DNA from: Catajapyx aquilonaris
Lineage: Eukaryota
Assembly (NCBI GenBank): GCA_000934665.2
Contig: JYFJ02002400.1
Location: 1-57,614 of the forward strand
Reading direction: 5' to 3'
DNA: 57,614 nt
Numbering within the stretch: the stretch's first letter is position 1; every line of letters starts with the position of its first letter. Both the position numbers and the translations under genes were made by a program. Below are positions 18,901-53,519 of this stretch, one piece after another. Under the pieces are notes generated by a model that was not told the DNA's origin, did not search any database, and saw nothing but the letters and a program-made list of their open reading frames with translations.

Positions 18901-20969
18901 TGTTTTTGCAAGCGTCGAAAAACATCGAAATAGATACAGTGTCGAGCACCTGATGATTGATGCTGCCAGCAAAATGGCTTTGAATGAGTCGTGTGTGTAC
19001 GAGTTTTGAAACCAAATGCGTGCACCTCCTGTATATAGCATGCATCAGCCTGACCGGGGGTGGTTGAGTCTTTAATATGAAGGCGCGGAAATCGATTTGT
19101 CACAGTGTGTTTTCTTCATTATACGGTCCCCCGACGCCCAACCGCGGGGCAATTTTTCATGTTTTCTTCCTCACTGAGAGTGGAGAGAGACGGACTGGCC
19201 ATGCACCCAGGCATTTAGAAGGCCTCTCTCTCTCACCCCCCTTTAGGCAACATGATTAATCGAGTGGGTCACTCCAGTTTGGATTGGGAAGTGATTAATC
19301 TGACGGCCGAGTCTGCTCTGCATCAATGAACACCCACCACCGAATAATATCCACTCTGCTTTTTTTTATTATCCGGGTCGCTATTAGAGGCCCGTTTTAC
19401 ACATAGGATCGCGTCTCACTGCCAACCTGGTCCGGAGGTGTTTGTCTAAAACCGGTGCGTCGTAACTGCGTGTTGAAATTGACGGTCACGGAACATTTCC
19501 CCACCCCTCCCAAAACCATTCATCAATTATGAAAGTTGGTCCCGAAGTGACGGGATGTCTGAAGAAATCGGCAACTCACTCGAGGGGGGATCATCCGGAC
19601 CAGGTTGATTGATTATTACCCACCCTATACAGGGCCGCATCATTTTCCATCGTAACAATAGAGAGGGGCTGTCACTAACATATAATGACCATCCATGTAA
19701 TTATAGGGTACCATTTGGCGGATTAAAAATATACACACGAGCGATCCGTCGCTAAAATTTGGCAACACTACCAGGTGGCGCTCAGGAGAAACGTTGGTGA
19801 TGAGTCGCCATTTGACACGTCATGGGCCTGTTAGAAGCTCGACATGCTCGGTATACCGTTTGGAAGGAATAATTGCGTGTGCGGAAATTGTTTTGCGGCT
19901 CACCTTATTGGACGGCAGGCTTGGTGACGCCAGAGACATATCAAGCACAATGGAAATTAGGCACTTGGCGCCAGCCGATTAAATTCCCCAATGTAATACC
20001 GGGTTCTCCTGAGCTGTGCAGCCATATTGATCGAGTCTATCGCCATTTTTCCACCCCCTACTATTTTTTTTCTCTCTCTCACTTTCCTCCAGGCCTTCGT
20101 TTGGGGTCGACTCCCGGTAATGAAGGAAATGGCTTTTGCCGCCACCCACATTTTTTTCTTCCCCTACACACCCAAAAAAATAAGTCCAAACTGCTTTTGA
20201 CCAGTGCTCGAAAAAATTTTCGTCGACAACAAATGTGTCGCTTTTCATCGCGCTGGCAAGTTATTTAGTGAGTCACATTTCACTGGGTGGAGGCCAAGCC
20301 CTCCAGAGAAAATAATAAGCATCGATTTTACGATGAAACCGTTTCCATTAATCTCCTCGGGTATTCCCTAATAATTTAACATATATATACGTGGGTGTAT
20401 ATATATTCCCCTGGCTGGCTGGCTCCCCCCCCCCCCCCCCNCTCCTCTTCCATGGTATTCGACCCGGGGAGGAAGCAAAGGTATTTTACCACTGCCATTT
20501 CCCGTTAGCAGGAACGGAACAGGAAAAGGGAACGATAAGCCGTTTTCCATAAGGCATTAGAGAGATGGGGGTGAGCAGCAATGTTCCTCGTAAATTCGGG
20601 CCCCCTCTTGGCGTGCCTGGAAATGGGAGAAGATGGCCCCCTCTTTTGAGCTGGCTGGGCTGCTGCTGCTGGGGATCCTCTGGTATGGTTTGGTGGGGGA
20701 GGAAATGGCGGATGTAATCATAGAATATGCTAGGGAAGACTCGGGGAAGGCGTTTCTTTTTCTCTCCCTTACCCCTACAACCTTGCTTCAATTTCCGACC
20801 AGCACAATTATTTCTCGGAGAGAATCATAATAAAAACGACCTTCAGATAAACCCTCGTGTTTATGGGGGCCATGTCGACACTCTATAAAAACGGCTGTTT
20901 ATCATGTGTTGCACTTTATCAATAAGCTGGAATGATCGGAATCAAAGTCTCCTTTCTTATCGGAGTGTA

Positions 20970-21270
20970 CTATAACACGCAAAAAGATGGCCGCACTGTA
21001 TCCGTGTGGTGTTCACGACTTTTTGTTTCACTCTCCTGCCGCCAGGGTCCGGCAACGACCACCCTGGGGGCAGGAGAGTAAACTAAAAGTCTCCTTTCTT
21101 ATCGGAGTGTACTATAACAAGCAAAAAGATGGCCGCACTGTATCCGTGACTTTTAGTTTACTCTCCTGCCCCCAGGGTGGTCGTTGCCGGACCCTGGCGG
21201 CAGGTGAGTAAAAACAAAAAGTCGCCAACACCACACGGATACAGTGCGGCCATCTTTTTGCGTGTTATAG
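20970..21270. mobile_element. Family-A foldback MITE (TA TSD) with nested hairpins and internal duplication
   Basis: TA|CTATAACACGCAAAAAGATGGCCGCACTGTATCCGTG ... exact reverse complement|TA. Each arm contains its own CTCCTGCC...GGCAGG hairpin; the centre repeats 20944-21006 at 21086-21148. Confidence 0.88.
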
Positions 21271-22477
21271 TACGTGTCGCGTGCCTGATGGCGCGACTTC
21301 TCATGTGAGCAGGTGCGGATTCGAGCGAGCGAACAATGTCTTGTCGGCACCGTTCCATTAATAGCTCGCGTCTTTTTTTAAATACGTTTGCTAAATTTCC
21401 AAGCGAAAGAAACCCGAGCAGGTTATCTCTAGAATTCGCGAACTTGGCACGGAGACTACAGCTGCAGGTCTGGTGCCAAGAGACGCACGTGCTTATCTGT
21501 TTGGCCCCCGCAGCATTTATTTGGTTGGCCAAAATTTTCGGGAGACGAAAAAGTATAGGAACAATGATTAGATTTTGGGTGAATAGAAACCCTTTATCAC
21601 TCATCAACCAGCCTCTCCTTTTCCTTCATGGCCTGCTGCACTGATAAGCCTGCCTCTCTCCCCTGGTTTTTGGGTGACATTGGACCATCAAGGGTTGCAT
21701 CTGGGGGCCTCGGGGCCATATGTATGGATTCCCTATAGCTCCCTCGACGGAATATAATCGTGTGCAGGAGAAGGAAGGGGGAGATCCAGCTAAATGCCCC
21801 CCCTTTTTCCCCCCTTTTCTCCCTTTCCCTTCCCCCCTGCTTTTGCCGCAACTCATTTCGGGCCCAGGCGACATTTTCGATTTTCTTCAAAGAGCCAGCA
21901 TGTGAGCACTCGACAAGCTCGCTTCTTTGTACAAGGCTTGGAGGCAGCAGCCTACCTGTTACGGACATGGCAAAAAAAAGAGAAAGAAACTTTGTGCGAA
22001 CCAATGCGTGTTGTTGGTTTTTGACATTATCACACCTGCAATTTTTCAGACGCCGACACGTTCCAAAAAAAAAGGTCGGACTCAGTCAGCCGGAGAGAGA
22101 GAAAAAAAAGTATATGCAAAAATTTCTGCGGTCGCGTTCGTGAGAGTTCGGTTATGTTATTTTTTTAAACCGAAACACTTGTGTTAGTTTTGCGGCCTGC
22201 GGTCAGTTTTGCAGCGCTGGGTTTTTACTCGCGAGTATGTCAGGTTGTCTGTATTCTGCCAGTATTCGATGACATTACAGATTTTGTCATCATCCTCGTT
22301 ATCCGCTGGAAACCCCATTTTTTTAGGGGGGGGGGGGNGGGGGGGGGAGGGGGAAAACGCCGTGACGGATGATGAACGAAGCTGTTGATTTGTCGACATT
22401 TTTGTGTACTACTCTCCTAAAAATTTCAAGTAAAAAATTTCAACCAAAAAAATGAGCAATTTCGCAAAATGCAATGT

Positions 22478-25900: not shown

Positions 25901-28017
25901 CGTATTCAGAGTCGTTCGCTAATGCAGCGCAAAAGTGCACACTAACTAGTGCGACGCTAGGTCCGCACTAGCGCCACACTTGTTGCTCCCATTCAGAGTC
26001 GCCTTACTGCCTGCTTAGAGCGGTGCACTAGGTTCGAACACTGCACTAGCGAGACGCGGTGTTGCCACGATTTCACAGTCAGGTTTTCGGACACCGTCTG
26101 GGCGATAAATGGGTACCACACGTGCCTATAGACACGCTTATCCTATACTGGATAAGTTGTTTTTTGTTCTTGGCAAAAATGGGTTCAAACACGAGGAGTA
26201 AGTGAAACACATATTTTTCGGCTGGCGATAATTGGCCCCCTTCCCCCCCCCCCCCCTTTCCTTCCATTTTCTTTTTATGTCGGTTTCCTTTTCCTTCCCA
26301 GCAGCACGTCATCACTCGAGCGAGTTGACTTTGGAAGGTTCGACTTTCAGGAGATGGATGTGTAAGTGCAGATGGACCACACGCGCTTTTCAGAGGCTTT
26401 GGGGGGGGGATTTTTTGGCAGCCGGGCCAAATAGCTTCTCTCGATGGAGTCAGATGCCGAGCACTTGCTGGGTAGAAAAATATGGATGGAGGTCGGGCCA
26501 AACCGCAGGAAAGTCATTACCGAAACACTATACGTTTCCAAGAGAGTTGGTCAGGCTTTCTCCCAAGTATTTTCTGAAAGGTGCTGTGGTTGACTGGTGT
26601 CATAGGTCGGGGAGCTAATTCTGGTTGGGGCCAATCTGTCTCTCTGGTAGGTGCTGGGGGGCATGGAGGAAGAGGGTTGCTGAGCTGCGGGAATCCGTCG
26701 GATTTGGAGTGGATTCGATGCTTTCAGAGCCTGGCAATAAATAAGAGGGAGGCAAACACTGGTCGGCTTCAGAGGAGGGGGAGACTTCCCCAAAATGGGG
26801 GACTGGCATCACAGGTAGTCCTCTGCCCGTGAAATGCGTTTGTGTCGGCCGAATTGGTGCCCTTCGGATGAATAGATTTGTTGGGGAGGTACAGAAGGGG
26901 ACAAAAGAGAAAATGGAACAAAAGATTTTGAGCGGACGTCTTAATCTGGCAAAGCCAAGGAAGGGTCCAGGTCCGTCCTAGAGAAAGAGAGAGAAAAAAA
27001 AGGTTTGGACCCTGCTGTGTGACAAGAAGGCAGCTGCCGGATTTGGGTAGGACATTTCTGCCTGCATGTTGCGGCCATTGTGCATCTCCTCTCAACAAAA
27101 ACCCGGGGGGACCAGGTCCAAAATTACAGACAACACATTTCTGCTACACTACATGGCGTTGACAACTGTTTGCCGCAGCAACTAGTCTCGAAAGATATCA
27201 AAATCCTACCAGTTTTGCACGACGTCACGCGACCTTGGACTCGCCGCATGCGCAGTCGCTCTGATGGCTTTATATTACTTTCTATACGTTATGAGCACAA
27301 TTTTGCAGTTGGGATCATTGGAGCCATAGCCTGTGGGAAAATAAGTGCTTTAACCTGCCGGATGATTGCCTAATAAAACGGGTTAAATACCGAAATAAAA
27401 TTAAAAATCCGACGTTTTATGCCTCGCTGGCCCCAGATTTATTTCGGGAAACCTCTTTTAAAAAAAGGGTCTATGGCTTCTCTTTTCTCTCTCTTTTTTG
27501 ATCCGACGAGCTGAGTGGTATAAGTGGAGTGTGACAGTTGATGGAGGGCTGGCTTGTACTGTCCTCCTGTCCACTTACCCGGAGGGACATCCATGACGAT
27601 CGCTATCCCGGACAAACCTCGCAGCAGCCAATAGGCCAGCTTCATCCCTCATAACATCCTGATGGGGGAGGGAATCTCTCGCTTTTTTTCCTTCTTATTC
27701 TTGGGGGTCGCCCCTCCGGTAGCCCCAACTCGTCTCGATCGAATTTAGTCCCCAAGATGGACGGTTCATGTAGGGAGGACCAGGGTCTAGGATCCATTTA
27801 CCTTTTTTTTTTACGACCAGATTTTATTTCTGGCGCTGGCGACGCCTGCGGGTTGCTGTCACTTTCTTACGTCCCCCTTCCCATGTACCGGACCCTCAAC
27901 TTTTTTCATTCCGAATTAAATTTCCTTCGGACGTGAAGCTTGCCACAGAAATCCATAGAGTACGAGTCTTTAAAAAAACGACTGTACTGCAAGGATTTGG
28001 CTTGCTGCCAATTGGGT

Positions 28018-28045
28018 GTGGGTTCGGGCCCCACGTTGGGCGCCA
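28018..28045 (-). other. Primer-binding site complementary to tRNA-Lys(CUU) 3' end (extended, includes CCA)
   Basis: Plus strand GTGGGTTCGGGCCCCACGTTGGGCGCCA vs the conserved metazoan tRNA-Lys(CUU) 3' end GTGGGTTCGAGCCCCACGTTGGGCG+CCA: 27/28. Minus strand reads TGGCGCCCAACGTGGGGC, the classic Lys PBS. Not a complete tRNA gene. Confidence 0.88.
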
Positions 28046-28046
28046 A

Positions 28047-28201
28047 TGTCAGGACCCTTGACCAGGACCAGGCTAGCTCGCAGGGCGTGGGAATAAGAGT
28101 CCGGTGGGAGGTTAAATCAGTGTATTGCAGGAGAGAGAGTGTCTCTTTTTCCCACGCCCTATGAGCTAGCCTGGTCAGGGGTCAGGTCAAGGATCCTGAC
28201 A
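28047..28201 (-). mobile_element. 155-bp TG...CA element: LTR-like terminus with long foldback arms
   Basis: Ends TGTCAGGA...TCCTGACA; arms of about 55-60 bp pair with a few mismatches and one 6-bp indel. On the minus strand it is followed after 1 nt by a tRNA-Lys primer-binding site. Confidence 0.75.
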
Positions 28202-28269
28202 CGCAAAAAGATTGTCGCACTGTATCTGTGTGGTGACCAGCCCTTTCTGGTTTACCCTCCTGCCGCAAG
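28202..28269 (+). mobile_element. Truncated family-A MITE left arm
   Basis: CGCAAAAAGATTGTCGCACTGTATCTGTGTGGTG...CTCCTGCCGCAAG aligns without gaps to 20978-21045; the first ~8 bp of the TIR are replaced by the element at 28047-28201. Confidence 0.8.
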
Positions 28270-30292
28270 CCGGTTGAGGGTGTTTGGGGGTGATTCTATA
28301 CTTCCCCTTTACCCTGTTGAATGCACCAGGATGTGCATTGAATATTTAACACGCGCTATGCACTCGGTGTTACTGCATTACTAAGCTCGCAGGCACGTAC
28401 GGATTGTGCCAAAATTCACAAGGCATTTTAGGGATTCCGCGTGGTTATCTGGACTCCTGCGAATGTTTTCCCAAGAATTCCAGCGCAACTCTAGCCCCCC
28501 CGGATTCCACCCCTCTCTCAGGAGGAAATTTCAACCGTGGAGGGGAAACTGTGCATCGATTAGGAAAGGCGAGGCATAAGCAGGCAACAATGTGTAGTCG
28601 GGAGTCCACGAGGTTTGCACCAAGTTGTGTAAGTGCAGTGTGTGTGTGTATACACAGGAAAGGCATTTAGCGAGAGTGGCTCGGGCAACGGGGGATTTTC
28701 CGGGCCAAGCCCGTTTTCGAAAAACTGTAAGGTGTCGGCTACTTAACTCCAGAAGGGAAAACAAACTTCAAAACCCAGTTCAAGGCTGGAGAAACTAGGC
28801 CAGGTCATCAAAGTTTGACATGTACTGCATGGAAAAAAGTTTTTGACATACCCTGCTCTCTGCAGCCACCCCAGTCTTATTGCTAGAGAGTGGTGGATGC
28901 CAGACGGTATATGCAATTTGACGTGGCTTTGGGTTCCCAGTGGCAGCTCCGCCTGGGTGTACTTAGCAGATAGACAAATGTAAATAGTAGGGACAAATGG
29001 AATCCACAGGCTTTGGATCCGTAATGAGAGTAGCAAGCCCTCCCCCTCCCCTGCCTCTAAATGGCATTAGGTTCCCCAGGCAGTCATTAAAGCGACCTCA
29101 GCAGCAGCTTGCTCTTTTACATCCTCGTTGCTTCATGAGGGAGGAGAATAGAGATTGGGGAGGTGGGGGAGGGGGGCAAAAGGCGTCTATTCGATCTTTG
29201 ATTTATACTAAAAGCCACGGCGCGAGAACGAGTTCCGTTTTCTTATAAGAGTGCAACTTATAATGGCGGGCAGGAAAGTTTGCCTTCCCTTCCCGCGTGC
29301 TGCCTCGCCCTATCATATATAATTATAAGCCCAAAGTAGGTAGTGGGGGAGTTATGCAGGGAAAGTTAGCGGGGGGGCCCTATTGATACCCGTTTTCAGC
29401 TCTGATTAAGTACAACCAATAAGGGAGCCGTGAATCATTTTTATGGCGGGTTAATTCGCCAGCCAAGGAAATTAGTACACTTCTCTCCGGAAGATGCTTT
29501 TCTTTTCCGGAGGGGGGGAGTTGACCTCTTAAGTTTGCCAAAAAAAAATGGCGATGAGGGATAATGAAGCATCGATTGACTTTGGCCCAAACGTGTATCA
29601 AGTTGCCGAAATAACGGTGGAAATATACACAGGATAACTTGGCGTCATCAACCAAGGTCCTTCCCCTCTTTCGAGTGAATCAATCAAGTTGTTTCCGGAA
29701 CTTGTGGATGTCTTTTGGCGTGTTGAGTGTCCGAGAAGATTGTCTGCGAAAAGAGGGGGAAAAAAAGAAATGAGGTTAAATTGTCCTCGGAAGACCGATT
29801 CGTAAGTGTAGTCGTGGCATGCAACCGGGGAGGGGCGGCCCGCGTGCTGGTTATTAGCCCCACTCCCCACTGAAAGAATGGCTCCCAGCAGATTGGCCCG
29901 ACCGTCTTCCCCAGCAGGCCCATCCCTTCTTCTTGCAAAATTAATATTCCTGCAGCTGGCTCCCCCTTCTTGTCTTGATTCCCTTCCCCCCCAAACTAGA
30001 AGCCTGAGCATCCAGGGTTAGCCAAACACGTGTCCTTTCCACCACTTGTGTATACACACACACACCGGGGGCACCCCATAAATAACGGAGACGCTTTTAG
30101 AGCCCCTGTTTTGACACTTCACTTCCTCGTCACGCAACCTCTAATAGTCTGGGTACGCCATAATGCGTATTTCAAGACCACCGCCATCTGTCTGTACATT
30201 GCCCTTAGGGACACCACTGACCAGCGACATCCCAGTGTCCCATTGTCGGTTTATCTTACCCTCGGCGCTACTGTTAGCCTGAGCGTATCTCA

Positions 30293-49204: not shown

Positions 49205-49438
49205 CTATGAACCGCAAAAACATTGTCGCACTGTTATGGCGTTCGCGACTTCTAATTTAACCCTCCTCCCGCAAGGGGCGCTGCCAGTATCACTGAGCAG
49301 CGCCCCTTGCGGGAGGAGTGTCAATTAGAAGTCCTCCTTAGTACTCCTCCCGCAAGGGTCAGTGGTGACACTGGCAGCGCCCCTTGCGGGGAAGTCGCGG
49401 ACGCCATAACAGTGCGACAATGTTTTTGCGGTTCATAG
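49205..49438. mobile_element. Family-A-related foldback MITE (TA TSD)
   Basis: TA|CTATGAACCGCAAAAACATTGTCGCACTGTTATGGCGT ... reverse complement|TA. TIR is clearly similar to 20970; same GACTT...hairpin...AAGTC internal layout with CCGCAAGGGG/CCCCTTGCGG hairpins. Confidence 0.88.
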
Positions 49439-51151: not shown

Positions 51152-52504
51152 TCAACAGGCAGCGTGTTGCCAATAATAAGTCGAGTATAATGAAATCCAG
51201 TCCAGCAAGTGCGGTAGTTTGAGTAATGCATCGGGGCATGTGCTGTACGTTACTATACGTGTTGTGTCAGCTTGGCTCGGCTCGGCTTGGCTGGTGCCAA
51301 CGGCCCGCCAATTTGTTAATGATTCATTTAGCAAATGAGAGAGCGGGCAGCCTTTTCCACGCAAACCAGAATAGCCCCTGCCTGCGTCATAGACTAAAGG
51401 GCAGCAGCAACAGCACAAGAACTGAGCTGCTAATTTATTGTTCAGCAATGATTGTCCCACCATTATTTTTATGTAGTTTTTGGCCTCTCAGTCCCCTCCA
51501 AAAAATAGTGTCGTCTCGTCGCATCATTAAACCAAACCCTCTTTTGGTATCGCGATTTATTCATTTATGCCCGCCTTTTGGCCCGACTTTTTCGGCAAGC
51601 CCTGGGGGTTGGATTGGTCCACAACTAGTCCCCCCCCACTTTCCCCCTTGTCGCATGCTAATTTCGGGTCCGAGTCAAATAGATGATGAGTCAGACGTGC
51701 TCTCATTATCTAACTGCAGCGCAAATAGAGGGAAGTTAGCCGTCTTTGTGCCTCCAATTTCACATGATAATGCCGACTTATTTTGCTCCCAGGGACAGAG
51801 AGGGAAGGGGGGAGATTATGACGTTACATTTTCAATGGCCGAAAAAAAACAGGCGCTCCAATCTCTTCTGTCATATCCGGCCATGATGGTGTTACGAGTT
51901 AGTCACACCTAATATAATAATATTTATAAAAAAAGTGCTAATATCGAGTGACGTCACTTGAGGTTCTGAACAAGTTTGGTGGGAATCAGCACTTTCTGAA
52001 GCAATGAGTCGCGCACAAAAAAGTTTTTTACTCCTAGTTCCTTCTCTCTCTTTTTGAGTGTTGAGCACCTGAGGGACAATCCGGGCTGAAATGAAGACGT
52101 GGAGAAAAATAGGGGAGGCTGCAACCTGATCGGTATGCCGGAGGCAGGATTCCTCAAACAAAAGTTGCACCGCAGACTGCCCCCTCACCCTCCTCCTTCC
52201 CAAACTCCATTACTCCCCTCCTCTCCCCACACAGCTCGCCTTCCCCCCTTCTTTTATTCTCCTCCTCCTCCTCCTCTCGTTGGCGCTTTTTCTTTGCTGT
52301 TGGCTTTTTGGGCAGGGAAAGCACGTAACCCGTTCACTCCAATTGCTGGAGGGAGATGGAGTATAACTACCAAGACTCTGATTCTGTTTGGAAAAACACC
52401 ACTCAAAAAACGGAGTCACACAACTCAACAACAGCTATACATCGCTGTCTGACCATGCCTTCAAAATAGGACTTTTTTCCGGAACCAAAACTGTCAACAC
52501 GGTC

Positions 52505-53519
52505 AACAGAGCAGGGTGGCCAGATGAGAGGGAAATTTTGAGTTACTTGATCTGGCCACCCTTATCGAAGAAGCAGGGTAGACAGATAAATGCTTCGTCT
52601 GGCAACGGAGCAGGGTGGCCAGATGAGGGGGAAATTTACTTGATCTGGCAACCCTTATCGAAGAAGCAAGGTAGCCAGATAAATGCTTCGTCTGGCAACA
52701 GAACAGGGTGGTCAGATGAGGGAGAACTATGAGTTACTTGATCTGGCCACCCTTATCAAAGAAGCAAGGTAGCCAGATAAATGCTTCGTCTGGCAACAAC
52801 AGGGTGGCCAGATGAGGGGGAACTCAGAGTTACTTGATCTGGCCACCCTTATCGAAGAAGCAGGGTAGACAGATAAATGCTTCGTCTGGCAACGGAGCAG
52901 GGTGGCCAGATGAGGAGGAAATTTACCTGATCTGGCAACCCTTATCGAAGAAGCAAGGTAGCCAGATAAATGCTTCGTCTGGCAACAGAACGGGGTGGCC
53001 AGATGAGGGAGAACTATGAGTTACTTGATCTGGCCACCCTTATCACAGAAGCAAGGTAGCCAGATAAATGCTTCGTCTGGCAATAACAGGGTGGCCAGAT
53101 GAGGGGGAACTCTGAGTTACTTGATCTGGTCACCCTTATCGAAGCATCAGGGTGGCCAGATAAATGCTTCATCATGAGCAAAAATCGGAGTCCTTTGATC
53201 TGGTCACCCTGCTGTGTGGCCAGGTGTATCATCCATCTGGTGTGTTACCAGGTGCAACAGAGCAGGATGGCATATGAGGGAAAATACTGATGAGTTTCTT
53301 GATCTGGCAACAGAGCAGGGTGACCAGATGAGGGAAAATATGACTTCCTTCATCTGGCCACCCTCGTCGAAGCAGGGTGGCCAATCCATCCAATTAGCAG
53401 GGTGGCCCGATTAATGCTGCACCTTGCAACAGAGCAGGGTGACCAGATGAGGGGGAAATGGGAGTTCCTTGACCTTCATCGAAGCAGGGTGGCCAGTTGA
53501 ATGCTGCATCTGGCAACTG
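52505..53519. repeat. Minisatellite of 93-99-bp double-hairpin monomers with 287-bp higher-order repeat
   Basis: Monomer starts at 52505, 52604, 52697, 52795, 52891, 52984, 53082, then degenerate copies to 53519. Each has CAGGGTGGCCAGAT...ATCTGGCCACCCT plus GGTAGCCAGAT-AAATGCTTC-GTCTGGCAAC. Confidence 0.95.

Follow-up and report, generated by a model that had tools for sequence, protein, structure and literature searches.

The stop of reverse transcriptase (RT) at m1A58 of the primer tRNA sets the 18-nt length of the primer binding site (PBS) and is regarded as essential for plus-strand transfer. In the pertinent passages of PMC8599865, m1A58 is described as the plus-strand stop and m5Um54 as a second stop, and m1A was found to cause both RT arrest and misincorporation according to the pertinent part of PMC4787781. 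A cloned circle of MMLV was found to contain a near-complete tRNA between its LTRs (Colicelli and Goff 1986, cited after PMC12220202), and an extended PBS helix of 22 bp has been established in the HIV-1 initiation complex, as given in sections of PMC8096811. A literature search, mostly outside subscription journals, found no description of chromosomal fossils of tRNA read-through with a scar at position 58, and nothing on the capture of Ty1 cDNA together with the primer tRNA.

Viral records were found to carry similar extensions. Among the records with an exact PBS-Lys1,2, 27 go on with CGA at positions 57-55, and the base opposite position 58 was T in 24, C in two and A in one of them; the Lys3 records with TGA (n=8) contained T in five and C in three. 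A further four to five matching bases, with either T or C facing position 58, were found in 24/32 PBS-Lys1,2 and in 8/9 distinct PBS-Lys3 records, and five viral records contained C opposite position 58 with the match persisting beyond it. One record (L001/L076) was found to contain an LTR, the PBS and tRNA complement as far as position 13, followed by a truncated LTR; T at position 58 was its sole primer-site mismatch, and the 5′ PBS of the same record (L075) was followed by an ordinary leader.

In the window (the whole analysed stretch of 57,614 nucleotides), nucleotides 28014-28045 of the plus strand were found by alignment to be the 3′ end of an animal tRNA-Lys(CUU) including the CCA. The features of the locus, all read on the minus strand, are as follows.

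28047..28201, minus strand: LTR-like repeat unit of 155 nt, which begins TGTCAGG and ends CCTGACA; a near-perfect hairpin with inverted termini of ~46 nt
28046, minus strand: spacer of 1 nt between the ACA end of the repeat and the PBS
28028..28045, minus strand: PBS of 18 nt, exact complement of tRNA-Lys(CUU)/Lys1,2 positions 59-76, CCA included
28027, minus strand: base opposite tRNA position 58 (m1A58 in the mature tRNA), C on the minus and G on the plus strand
28014..28026, minus strand: PBS extension, complementary to tRNA positions 57-49, which complete the T arm, and to 47-44 in the variable loop, without position 48
27989..28013, minus strand: downstream stretch of ~25 nt, common to roughly one other genomic copy, with single-copy depth beyond it

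The references for the alignment were nucleotides 166-241 of L005, called by ARAGORN as a tRNA-Lys(ctt) with CCA, and the tRNA-like stretch of L001. All of the 32 bases (32/32) aligned to these tRNA-Lys(CUU)-type references, with the G at 28027 as the sole substitution (A in L005, T in L001) and tRNA position 48 as the single absent base. The original prediction had claimed a match of 27/28, which held for the core 28018-28045; it had also counted 28027 as the 19th base from the 3′ end (28045), which is indeed tRNA position 58, and had followed the match to 28014-28017 across one deleted base, now identified as position 48. The four bases past the gap, 28014-28017, carry little weight by themselves. 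The reverse complement of 28028-28045 was found to be the 18-nt PBS for tRNA-Lys1,2 printed in passages of PMC1084362 and PMC8775094. A 25-nt pattern with up to three mismatches gave one match in the window and none in 100 shuffles, and the probability of at least 9/10 matches beyond the PBS was ~3e-5; a chance match is excluded as the origin of the tRNA likeness of 28014-28045. A tRNA gene at 28014-28045 was rejected, as ARAGORN called no gene in the window, the CCA is present, only positions 44-76 are represented and no full cloverleaf was found. Rfam over 20-36 kb returned no tRNA and no ribozyme, just sub-threshold chance matches to miRNA and snoRNA. The B-box region of the tRNA stretch carries the position-58 change.

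On the minus strand, the 155-nt unit (28201-28047) was followed by the 1-nt spacer, the exact 18-nt PBS and a further 14 bases complementary to the tRNA. The unit was found to contain a TG start, a CA end and inverted termini and to lie within the 0-3 nt before the PBS that characterise an LTR end, and 28028-28045 contains the complement of at least 18 nt to the tRNA 3′ end, CCA included, that characterises a PBS. The predicted extension of the PBS over the whole T arm was likewise recovered, with the PBS in register with the LTR-like end, and it is highly probable that the PBS adjoins an LTR-type end. The fold of the unit had an energy of -108.3 kcal/mol (z -11.35). A unit of 155 nt that is nearly all hairpin is unusual for an LTR, and a second foldback family adjoins it at 28199. 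Neither BLAST (word size 7) nor a pattern search brought up 28047-28201 a second time in the window, and no polypurine tract with a directly repeated downstream unit was found there. No retroelement Pfam family, gag or pol, was found in 80 minus-strand ORFs between ~15.9 and 34.1 kb or in 40 (mostly the longest) of the 184 ORFs with a length of 85 aa or more in the window. The flanks at 28013 and 28202 contained no matching target-site duplication, and none is expected for a truncated element. The flanking LTR-like unit is atypical, and the window contains no complete element.

The copy number was taken from the read depth of four sequencing runs of one sample, with a unique depth of 29.9 in run X1. 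Relative to unique sequence (~30 reads), the depth was ~13x over the PBS, ~17-20x over the unit ends and the loop and ~110x over the unit core 28073-28114. The unit and the PBS are repeated ~13-20 times in the source genome and belong to a dispersed repeat. The depth was found to drop from ~13x at the PBS to ~2-4x at the extension 28014-28026, followed by a depth of 64.6 against the unique 29.9 in X1 over 27989..28013; by depth, the extension is common to just about one other genomic copy. No variant letters were reported over the PBS among the ~13x depth of copies, nor any other letter at 28027 in the read data. The mismatch at 28027 is counted as a single event, because there is only about one other extended copy and no other letter was reported. 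Three contigs contained an extra A inserted behind 28044 (155/351 depth in X1), which gives a 2-nt spacer in other copies, and the contigs were found to diverge at 28201 in loose ends. By summed contig depths, which are rough, ~60-75% of the unit ends adjoin the PBS, a share that could not exceed 50% if the LTRs were paired. In all four runs, a contig of single-copy depth was found in which the unit arm is joined straight to the T arm.

The retroviral records with PBS-Lys1,2 (L047-L078) contained the same 18-nt PBS as the window with the LTR end 0-3 nt upstream, and their complementarity often continued past 18 nt, with TCGA(A) in 24/32. Their extensions were found to end at position 55 or 54 (22-23 nt) whereas that of the window ends at position 44 (32 nt), and they are complete viral genomes whereas the window locus has no coding region. 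The same change as at 28027, C opposite position 58 after which the match resumes, was found in L051 and L070. The MMLV circle and L001/L076 contained, like the window, the LTR followed by the PBS and by tRNA complement far longer than 18 nt; these are cloned viral DNA and a viral record, respectively, whereas the window contains a chromosomal copy in a eukaryote with a shorter copy of the tRNA. The extended helix of HIV-1 also resembles the window in that the pairing of the template with the tRNA passes position 59 into the T loop (sections of PMC8096811), but it consists of four extra pairs in a replicating virus as against fourteen extra bases in a dead fragment. TRIM-type elements and solo-LTR remnants share with the window a short terminal-repeat-like unit (155 nt here, TG...CA), a PBS and the non-coding character, whereas the window yielded neither a second repeat nor a polypurine tract, and its unit is nearly all hairpin.

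A pattern of T arm plus CCA was found at 45 metagenome loci and at none in a genome-contig collection. The CCA was followed by 0-3 nt and TGT in 23 of the metagenome loci, and 22 junctions were retained after one duplicate had been dropped. These junctions (TGT class among L002-L046; invertebrate-type) contained, like the window, the CCA, 0-3 nt and TGT together with tRNA-Lys(CUU) complement far longer than 18 nt, and several of them keep gag-like or pol ORFs, unlike the window. The window repeat unit had no similarity to the fetched comparison loci outside the tRNA part. The tRNA copies of the 22 junctions were found to start at positions 1 to 47. Position 58 was non-A in 3/22 loci, whereas the positions below 52 had 22 mismatches among 806 (p=0.026 by a one-sided Fisher test, or 0.019 when the doubtful L036 is left out). 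This comparison rests on positions 1-51, as the 24 bases of positions 52-76 other than position 58 were preset by the pattern, and it reaches a p of only 0.02-0.03. The non-A nucleotide was T in L038 and L045 and G in L042, the last of which contained C opposite position 58 with the match continuing, as at 28027. The A at position 58 was kept in 19/22 extended copies, so read-through need not leave a scar.

Loci with the same LTR were found to differ in the extent of the tRNA copy and to be followed by unrelated sequences (L010/L032/L045 and L028/L040), and L045 carries a pol RNase H domain (PF17919, 2e-29) directly adjoining its tRNA copy. The differing extents and the junction of L045 indicate independent aberrant products of reverse transcription. 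L017 and L042 contained an extension restricted to the T arm, like that of the window, followed by a gag-like ORF, and differ by A/G at position 58. The gag-like ORF of L017 matched DUF1759 (1.4e-05), and the corresponding ORF of L042 had no Pfam match.

The reading preferred here, held with about even confidence, is that the minus strand contains the 5′ junction of a short non-coding repeat derived from an LTR retroelement, with tRNA read-through and an error at position 58. The extension was in all likelihood templated by the primer tRNA, and the evidence is evenly poised as to whether the mismatch at 28027 is due to m1A58 or to a later mutation. During plus-strand strong-stop synthesis, RT would copy the tRNA primer still joined to the minus-strand DNA, and m1A58 would usually arrest it once 18 nt had been made. 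RT may instead have passed m1A58 in the ancestor of the window copy, with C incorporated opposite it, and gone on through the T arm; it would then have left out position 48 and come to a stop, or changed template, within the variable loop. This DNA could have been fixed as a dead-end cDNA of LTR, PBS and tRNA joined to unrelated DNA, or as a small non-autonomous element that was duplicated once. Read-through is supported by the comparators: L001/L076, the metagenome junctions with their excess of changes at position 58, and the viral records in which the match goes on past a C opposite that position. Against the preferred reading stands the statement in a passage of PMC8599865 that read-through products of HIV-1 cannot be integrated. 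A random single mismatch, moreover, would fall on position 58 with a probability of ~1/28 to 1/10, which also counts against it.

The same tRNA-templated origin followed by an ordinary A>G transition at 28027 after insertion is rather unlikely, though transitions are the commonest substitutions. In its favour, the mismatch is a single event, with about one other extended copy and no variant reported at 28027, and the A kept in 19/22 extended copies elsewhere shows that RT as a rule copies faithfully or copies an unmethylated tRNA. Against it, no change other than one deletion has affected the remaining 31 aligned bases, and position 58 is also the varying one in independent elements and in viral records. 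The original claim of a read-through fossil stands as regards the tRNA-templated extension and the mismatch confined to position 58, which recurs elsewhere; it is weakened in that the mismatch here is a single event, for which a later A>G change is possible. The extension could also be a functional lengthening of the PBS, kept by selection because it makes the annealing of the tRNA more stable; position 58 would drift since m1A cannot form a Watson-Crick pair, and an error of read-through would be unnecessary. This reading finds a precedent in the 22-bp helix of HIV-1 (sections of PMC8096811), in the 4-5 extra matches kept by the 24/32 PBS-Lys1,2 and 8/9 PBS-Lys3 viral records and in L017 and L042, which inherit the T-arm extension before an open gag-like ORF. 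It is nevertheless quite improbable for the window, as a stepwise origin of fourteen extra bases in register would be impossible had no tRNA served as template, and the window copy is non-coding and nearly unique, which makes selection unlikely; relaxed selection cannot account for the change at position 58 in the one-off products L045 and L038, which are followed by unrelated sequences.

The plus strand could also be read as the remnant of a tRNA-Lys-derived retroposon (SINE), with a tRNA head and a hairpin derived from U5-R. Ohshima, Okada and colleagues reportedly put forward in 1993 a model in which SINEs were born from tRNA-primed minus-strand strong-stop DNA. Most copies of the unit seem to carry the PBS, a contig in all four runs joins the unit arm directly to the T arm, and the hairpin contained antisense tRNA-like pieces with a marginal shuffle p of 0.007-0.015 per test, uncorrected for four tests. 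Yet only positions 44-76 are present, an A box and a cloverleaf are both lacking, nothing upstream of 28014 matched tRNA positions 1-43, the sense-strand tRNA likeness of the unit was not significant (p 0.22-0.28), and the sequence reads equally as an LTR-PBS junction, so that a SINE origin is given little probability. The review PMC3747384 lists tRNA-Lys SINEs, and the term strong-stop DNA does not occur in it. The least probable reading, with only a very slight chance, is that the hairpin is an unrelated foldback or MITE DNA transposon that lies by chance beside a retro-copied 3′ fragment of a mature tRNA-Lys. The long inverted termini, the short length, the high copy number and the other foldback family at 28199 would suit such an element; many copies, on the other hand, have the PBS next to the unit at a constant spacing of 1-2 nt, no target-site duplication was seen, and a MITE beside a random tRNA fragment is disfavoured because chance adjacency would not recur. 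The locus is a real feature, in which m1A58 may have caused the mismatch.

The chromosomal copies past m1A58, here and at the comparison loci, mean that read-through products do reach genomes; some arrive internally deleted or as dead ends, and a few may represent lineages whose primer duplex is longer. It may be suggested, as a tentative and somewhat doubtful generalisation, that the LTR-PBS junctions of eukaryotes and retroviruses are a readable fossil of primer-tRNA modification, in which RT would repeatedly have copied past the 18-nt stop and m1A58, the only strongly RT-visible modification of tRNA-Lys(CUU), would be the sole position to change, the element strand then carrying C or A there; other blocks may be marked by the points at which the copies end, and the LTR-like unit of the window may itself be partly primer-tRNA cDNA, as tRNA-like stretches were found in both of its arms. 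As a single locus, the junction described here is of modest value, one decayed example. If the position-58 excess holds in an unbiased survey, it would give a sequence-only record of the tRNA methylation and RT fidelity of past hosts, and the polymorphism between T and C that lentiviruses and foamy viruses show immediately 3′ of the PBS would find an explanation as well.

Both of the hairpin arms of the unit were found to contain a 13-nt stretch resembling tRNA positions 2-14, with matches of 11/13 and 12/13, and the unit also contained a 15-nt stretch resembling the antisense anticodon arm, with a match of 14/15.

The plus strand at 28014-28045 was found to resemble a mature tRNA over its 3′ third, including the CCA. 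It was aligned with tRNA-Lys(CUU)-type references, namely L005 166-241 (a metagenome locus called as tRNA-Lys(ctt) by ARAGORN) and the tRNA-like stretch of the viral locus L001, and all 32 of its 32 bases were aligned with a single substitution: 28027 is G, against A in L005 and T in L001. The nucleotide at 28027 is the 19th base from the tRNA 3′ end, i.e. position 58, and tRNA position 48 is missing from the window copy. The reverse complement of 28028-28045 is the exact tRNA-Lys1,2 primer-binding site (PBS) sequence given in PMC1084362 and PMC8775094. A chance match was rejected (0 matches in 100 shuffles; 9 or more matches out of 10 past the PBS would arise with a probability of about 3e-5), as was a tRNA gene, the window being found to contain 0 tRNA genes. 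The original prediction of a tRNA-Lys 3′ end copied with a mismatch at m1A58 was borne out, since the alignment holds, chance is excluded and there is no tRNA gene.

The tRNA match was found to lie beside an LTR-like unit, followed by the presence of a foldback repeat on its other side:

28201 down to 28047, minus strand: 155-nt unit starting with TGTCAGG and ending with CCTGACA
28199-28282, to the right of the unit: copy of a different foldback repeat family, with further copies at 20944-21273 and 49208-49435

On the minus strand a single base was found between the unit end and the TGG of the PBS, and a unit end, a 1-nt gap and a PBS in this order form the arrangement typical of an LTR end beside its PBS. 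Judged by this junction, the locus works like a retroelement PBS. The features of a complete LTR element were not found at the locus (no second repeat, polypurine tract, gag or pol), and no second copy of 28047-28201 was found within the window. The window looks eukaryotic and non-coding in character. Of its 184 ORFs of 85 aa or more, 40 (mostly the longest) were compared with Pfam, as were 80 minus-strand ORFs surrounding the site; neither set yielded a family reaching its curated cut-off or a retroelement family. The unit itself was found to fold into a hairpin that is close to perfect (-108.3 kcal/mol, z -11.35), which is unusual. In both hairpin arms, 13 nt resemble tRNA-Lys positions 2-14 (28068-28080 and 28162-28174, with 11/13 and 12/13 matches), and 28088-28102, on the left side of the unit, contained 15 nt with 14/15 likeness to the antisense anti-codon arm. 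These likenesses are marginal (p 0.007-0.015 per test in four tests), and part of the hairpin unit may come from tRNA.

Copies in the source genome were surveyed with contigs of four sequencing runs from one sample, placed at a likeness of at least 80%; the runs are possibly the source of the window itself and so give no independent support.

Summed contig depth in one of the runs (X1), to be read as a rough copy count only
Unique sequence: ~30
27989-28009: ~65
28010-28030: ~117
28031-28051 (PBS): ~391
28052-28072: ~518
28073-28114 (unit core): ~3400
28136-28156 (loop side): ~616
28199-28219 (neighbouring family): ~4500

By this rough measure the unit with its PBS was present in roughly 13-20 copies and the unit core was much more abundant than the whole unit, whereas the T-arm extension with about 25 nt past it was found in only about one other copy. 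No variant letters were reported among the run contigs at 28027 or inside the PBS. The spacer was one base longer in three contigs (about 44% of the depth), giving the classic 2-nt spacer, and several diverging contigs marked 28201 as the unit boundary. All four runs contained one contig of single-copy depth linking the unit arm at 28085, via seven letters, to 28027 onward, which is a rearranged family copy with the unit fused to the T arm and PBS. The extension with G58 is essentially a single event with at most one duplication, because only about one further copy extends and no alternative letter was found.

A scan of metagenomes with a T-arm pattern (N at position 58) plus CCA returned 45 loci, and together with L001, 41 loci have A at 58, four have T and one has G. 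In 23 loci the CCA was followed by 0-3 nt and TGT, which mirrors an LTR end with its PBS; L043 duplicates L026 and L036 is doubtful, leaving 22 after de-duplication. The tRNA copies of this class were found to begin anywhere between positions 1 and 47. L010, L032 and L045 contained a common LTR with the tRNA copied to positions 17, 5 and 3, respectively, followed by unrelated sequence, and L028 and L040 contained another common LTR with the tRNA copied to 22 and 1, likewise followed by unrelated sequence; the two sets look like independent aberrant reverse-transcription products. The tRNA copy of L045 runs into a pol RNase H domain (PF17919, 2e-29), which implies that L045 is internally deleted and that the deletion was made at the tRNA copy. 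L017 and L042 parallel the window most closely: they share an extension that is limited to the T arm, starts at position 47 and leads into a gag-like ORF (matching DUF1759 in L017, 1.4e-05), and they differ at position 58 by A/G.

The other 22 metagenome loci were without an LTR-type junction, and about 12 of these shared a conserved T-rich flank. The members of this group (L006, L007, L011, L013, L015, L021, L022, L024, L027, L029, L030, L044, and L020), most of which come from a single metagenome series, have complete tRNA-Lys(ctt) cloverleaves ending in CCA and no LTR junctions, and may represent tRNA genes encoding CCA or a tRNA-Lys-derived repeat. L033 (~560-640) contained tRNA positions 36-76 with CCA and T at 58, between AAT microsatellites and without a TGT junction, and may be a retro-copied tRNA 3′ fragment with the same position-58 change.

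A non-A nucleotide at position 58 was found in 3 of the 22 de-duplicated junctions (T in L038 and L045, G in L042), against mismatches at 22 of 806 aligned positions below 52. The one-sided Fisher p was 0.026 (0.019 without L036; 0.0025 with L001 added) in a test where the scan pattern fixed the other 24 bases of 52-76, some loci are mutually related, and the window, whose match prompted the test, is left out. Some of the 22 mismatches, those at positions 27 and 43, look like host tRNA variants. Viral records anchored on the 18-nt PBS alone place no constraint on position 58, and 24 of the 32 PBS-Lys1,2 records (L047-L078) were found to continue with TCGA or TCGAA, matching to position 55 or 54. 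Two others (L051, L070) contained C followed by CGA, and one (L076, the same site as L001) contained A opposite 58 followed by a long extension. The ten PBS-Lys3 loci (L079-L088) represent nine distinct records, eight of which continue with TGA, presumably the complement of Lys3 positions 57-55, preceded by T in five and C in three. The nucleotide opposite 58 was C in L051, L070, L079, L086/L087 and L088. Complementarity beyond 18 nt is common in viral records, because the PBS-anchored records mostly continue the match; for HIV-1 a 22-bp extended PBS helix is described (PMC8096811). The base opposite 58 is the variable one in an otherwise conserved 22-23-nt match, and its usual alternative is C, as in the window.

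Viral contigs scanned with the T-arm pattern (N at 58) contained one locus, L001 (1-665, also L076), at the 3′ end of record IMGVR_UViG_638276397_000001, with an LTR followed by PBS-Lys1,2, the tRNA complement to position 13 and a truncated LTR. The sole difference in its primer site was T at 58. The stretch has the appearance of a cloned product, of the read-through or circle type, that was deposited within a genome record. It also differs from L005 at positions 29 and 41, which we take to be host tRNA variants. The 5′ PBS of the record (L075) was followed by an ordinary leader, and an LTR-LTR junction was found just upstream of the LTR-PBS-tRNA stretch.

Plus-strand strong-stop synthesis is stopped by m1A58, with m5Um54 as a second stop, and HIV-1 run-on products are described as losing complementarity after transfer and as unable to integrate (PMC8599865). 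The m1A nucleotide causes both arrest and misincorporation by reverse transcriptase (PMC4787781), and a cloned MMLV circle contained a near-complete tRNA copy between LTRs, ascribed to plus-strand copying of the still-attached primer (Colicelli and Goff 1986, described in PMC12220202). In the ancestor of the window copy, the plus strand would have passed position 58 and placed C there, then copied the T arm, omitted position 48 and stopped within the variable loop. Such a product could survive as a small non-coding element duplicated once or, like the L045-type loci, as a dead-end cDNA of LTR, PBS and tRNA that became joined to other DNA. An element with an extended PBS could in turn take read-through plus strands, because their 3′ ends would now pair, and position 58 would become a site of recurrent mutation.

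The G at 28027 may instead be a later transition, a reading favoured by the single event behind G58 in the window and by the A kept at 58 in most extended copies. Selection for priming may also account for the extension, and position 58 could then drift since m1A cannot pair, but the 14 in-register bases of the extension still require a tRNA template and the window copy is dead. tRNA-Lys retroposons have been modelled as derivatives of strong-stop DNA, and in a plus-strand reading the locus could be the remnant of one; a large share of units carry the PBS and the marginal tRNA-like stretches occur in both hairpin arms and at 28088-28102, but the tRNA head is absent. That a MITE lies beside a tRNA fragment by chance is unlikely, since the spacer to the PBS is fixed and recurrent.

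Earlier work already covers primer tRNA copying past 18 nt, the part played by m1A58 and extended PBS helices. In a literature search that took in few subscription journals, no description of a chromosomal fossil scarred at position 58 was found. The locus itself is of moderate interest, and the position-58 pattern across loci is the more interesting lead.

The foldback family at 20944-21273, 49208-49435 and 28199-28282 was found to contain 62-72-nt inverted arms at ~150x depth in the runs. Its copies other than 28199-28282 were preceded by GTACTATA, and the copy at 28199 was truncated exactly at the hairpin unit, the two overlapping by ACA. Self-BLAST also revealed a tandem array at 52504-53517 of the window, whose repeats recur every ~96-99 nt and are 78-88% identical to one another.
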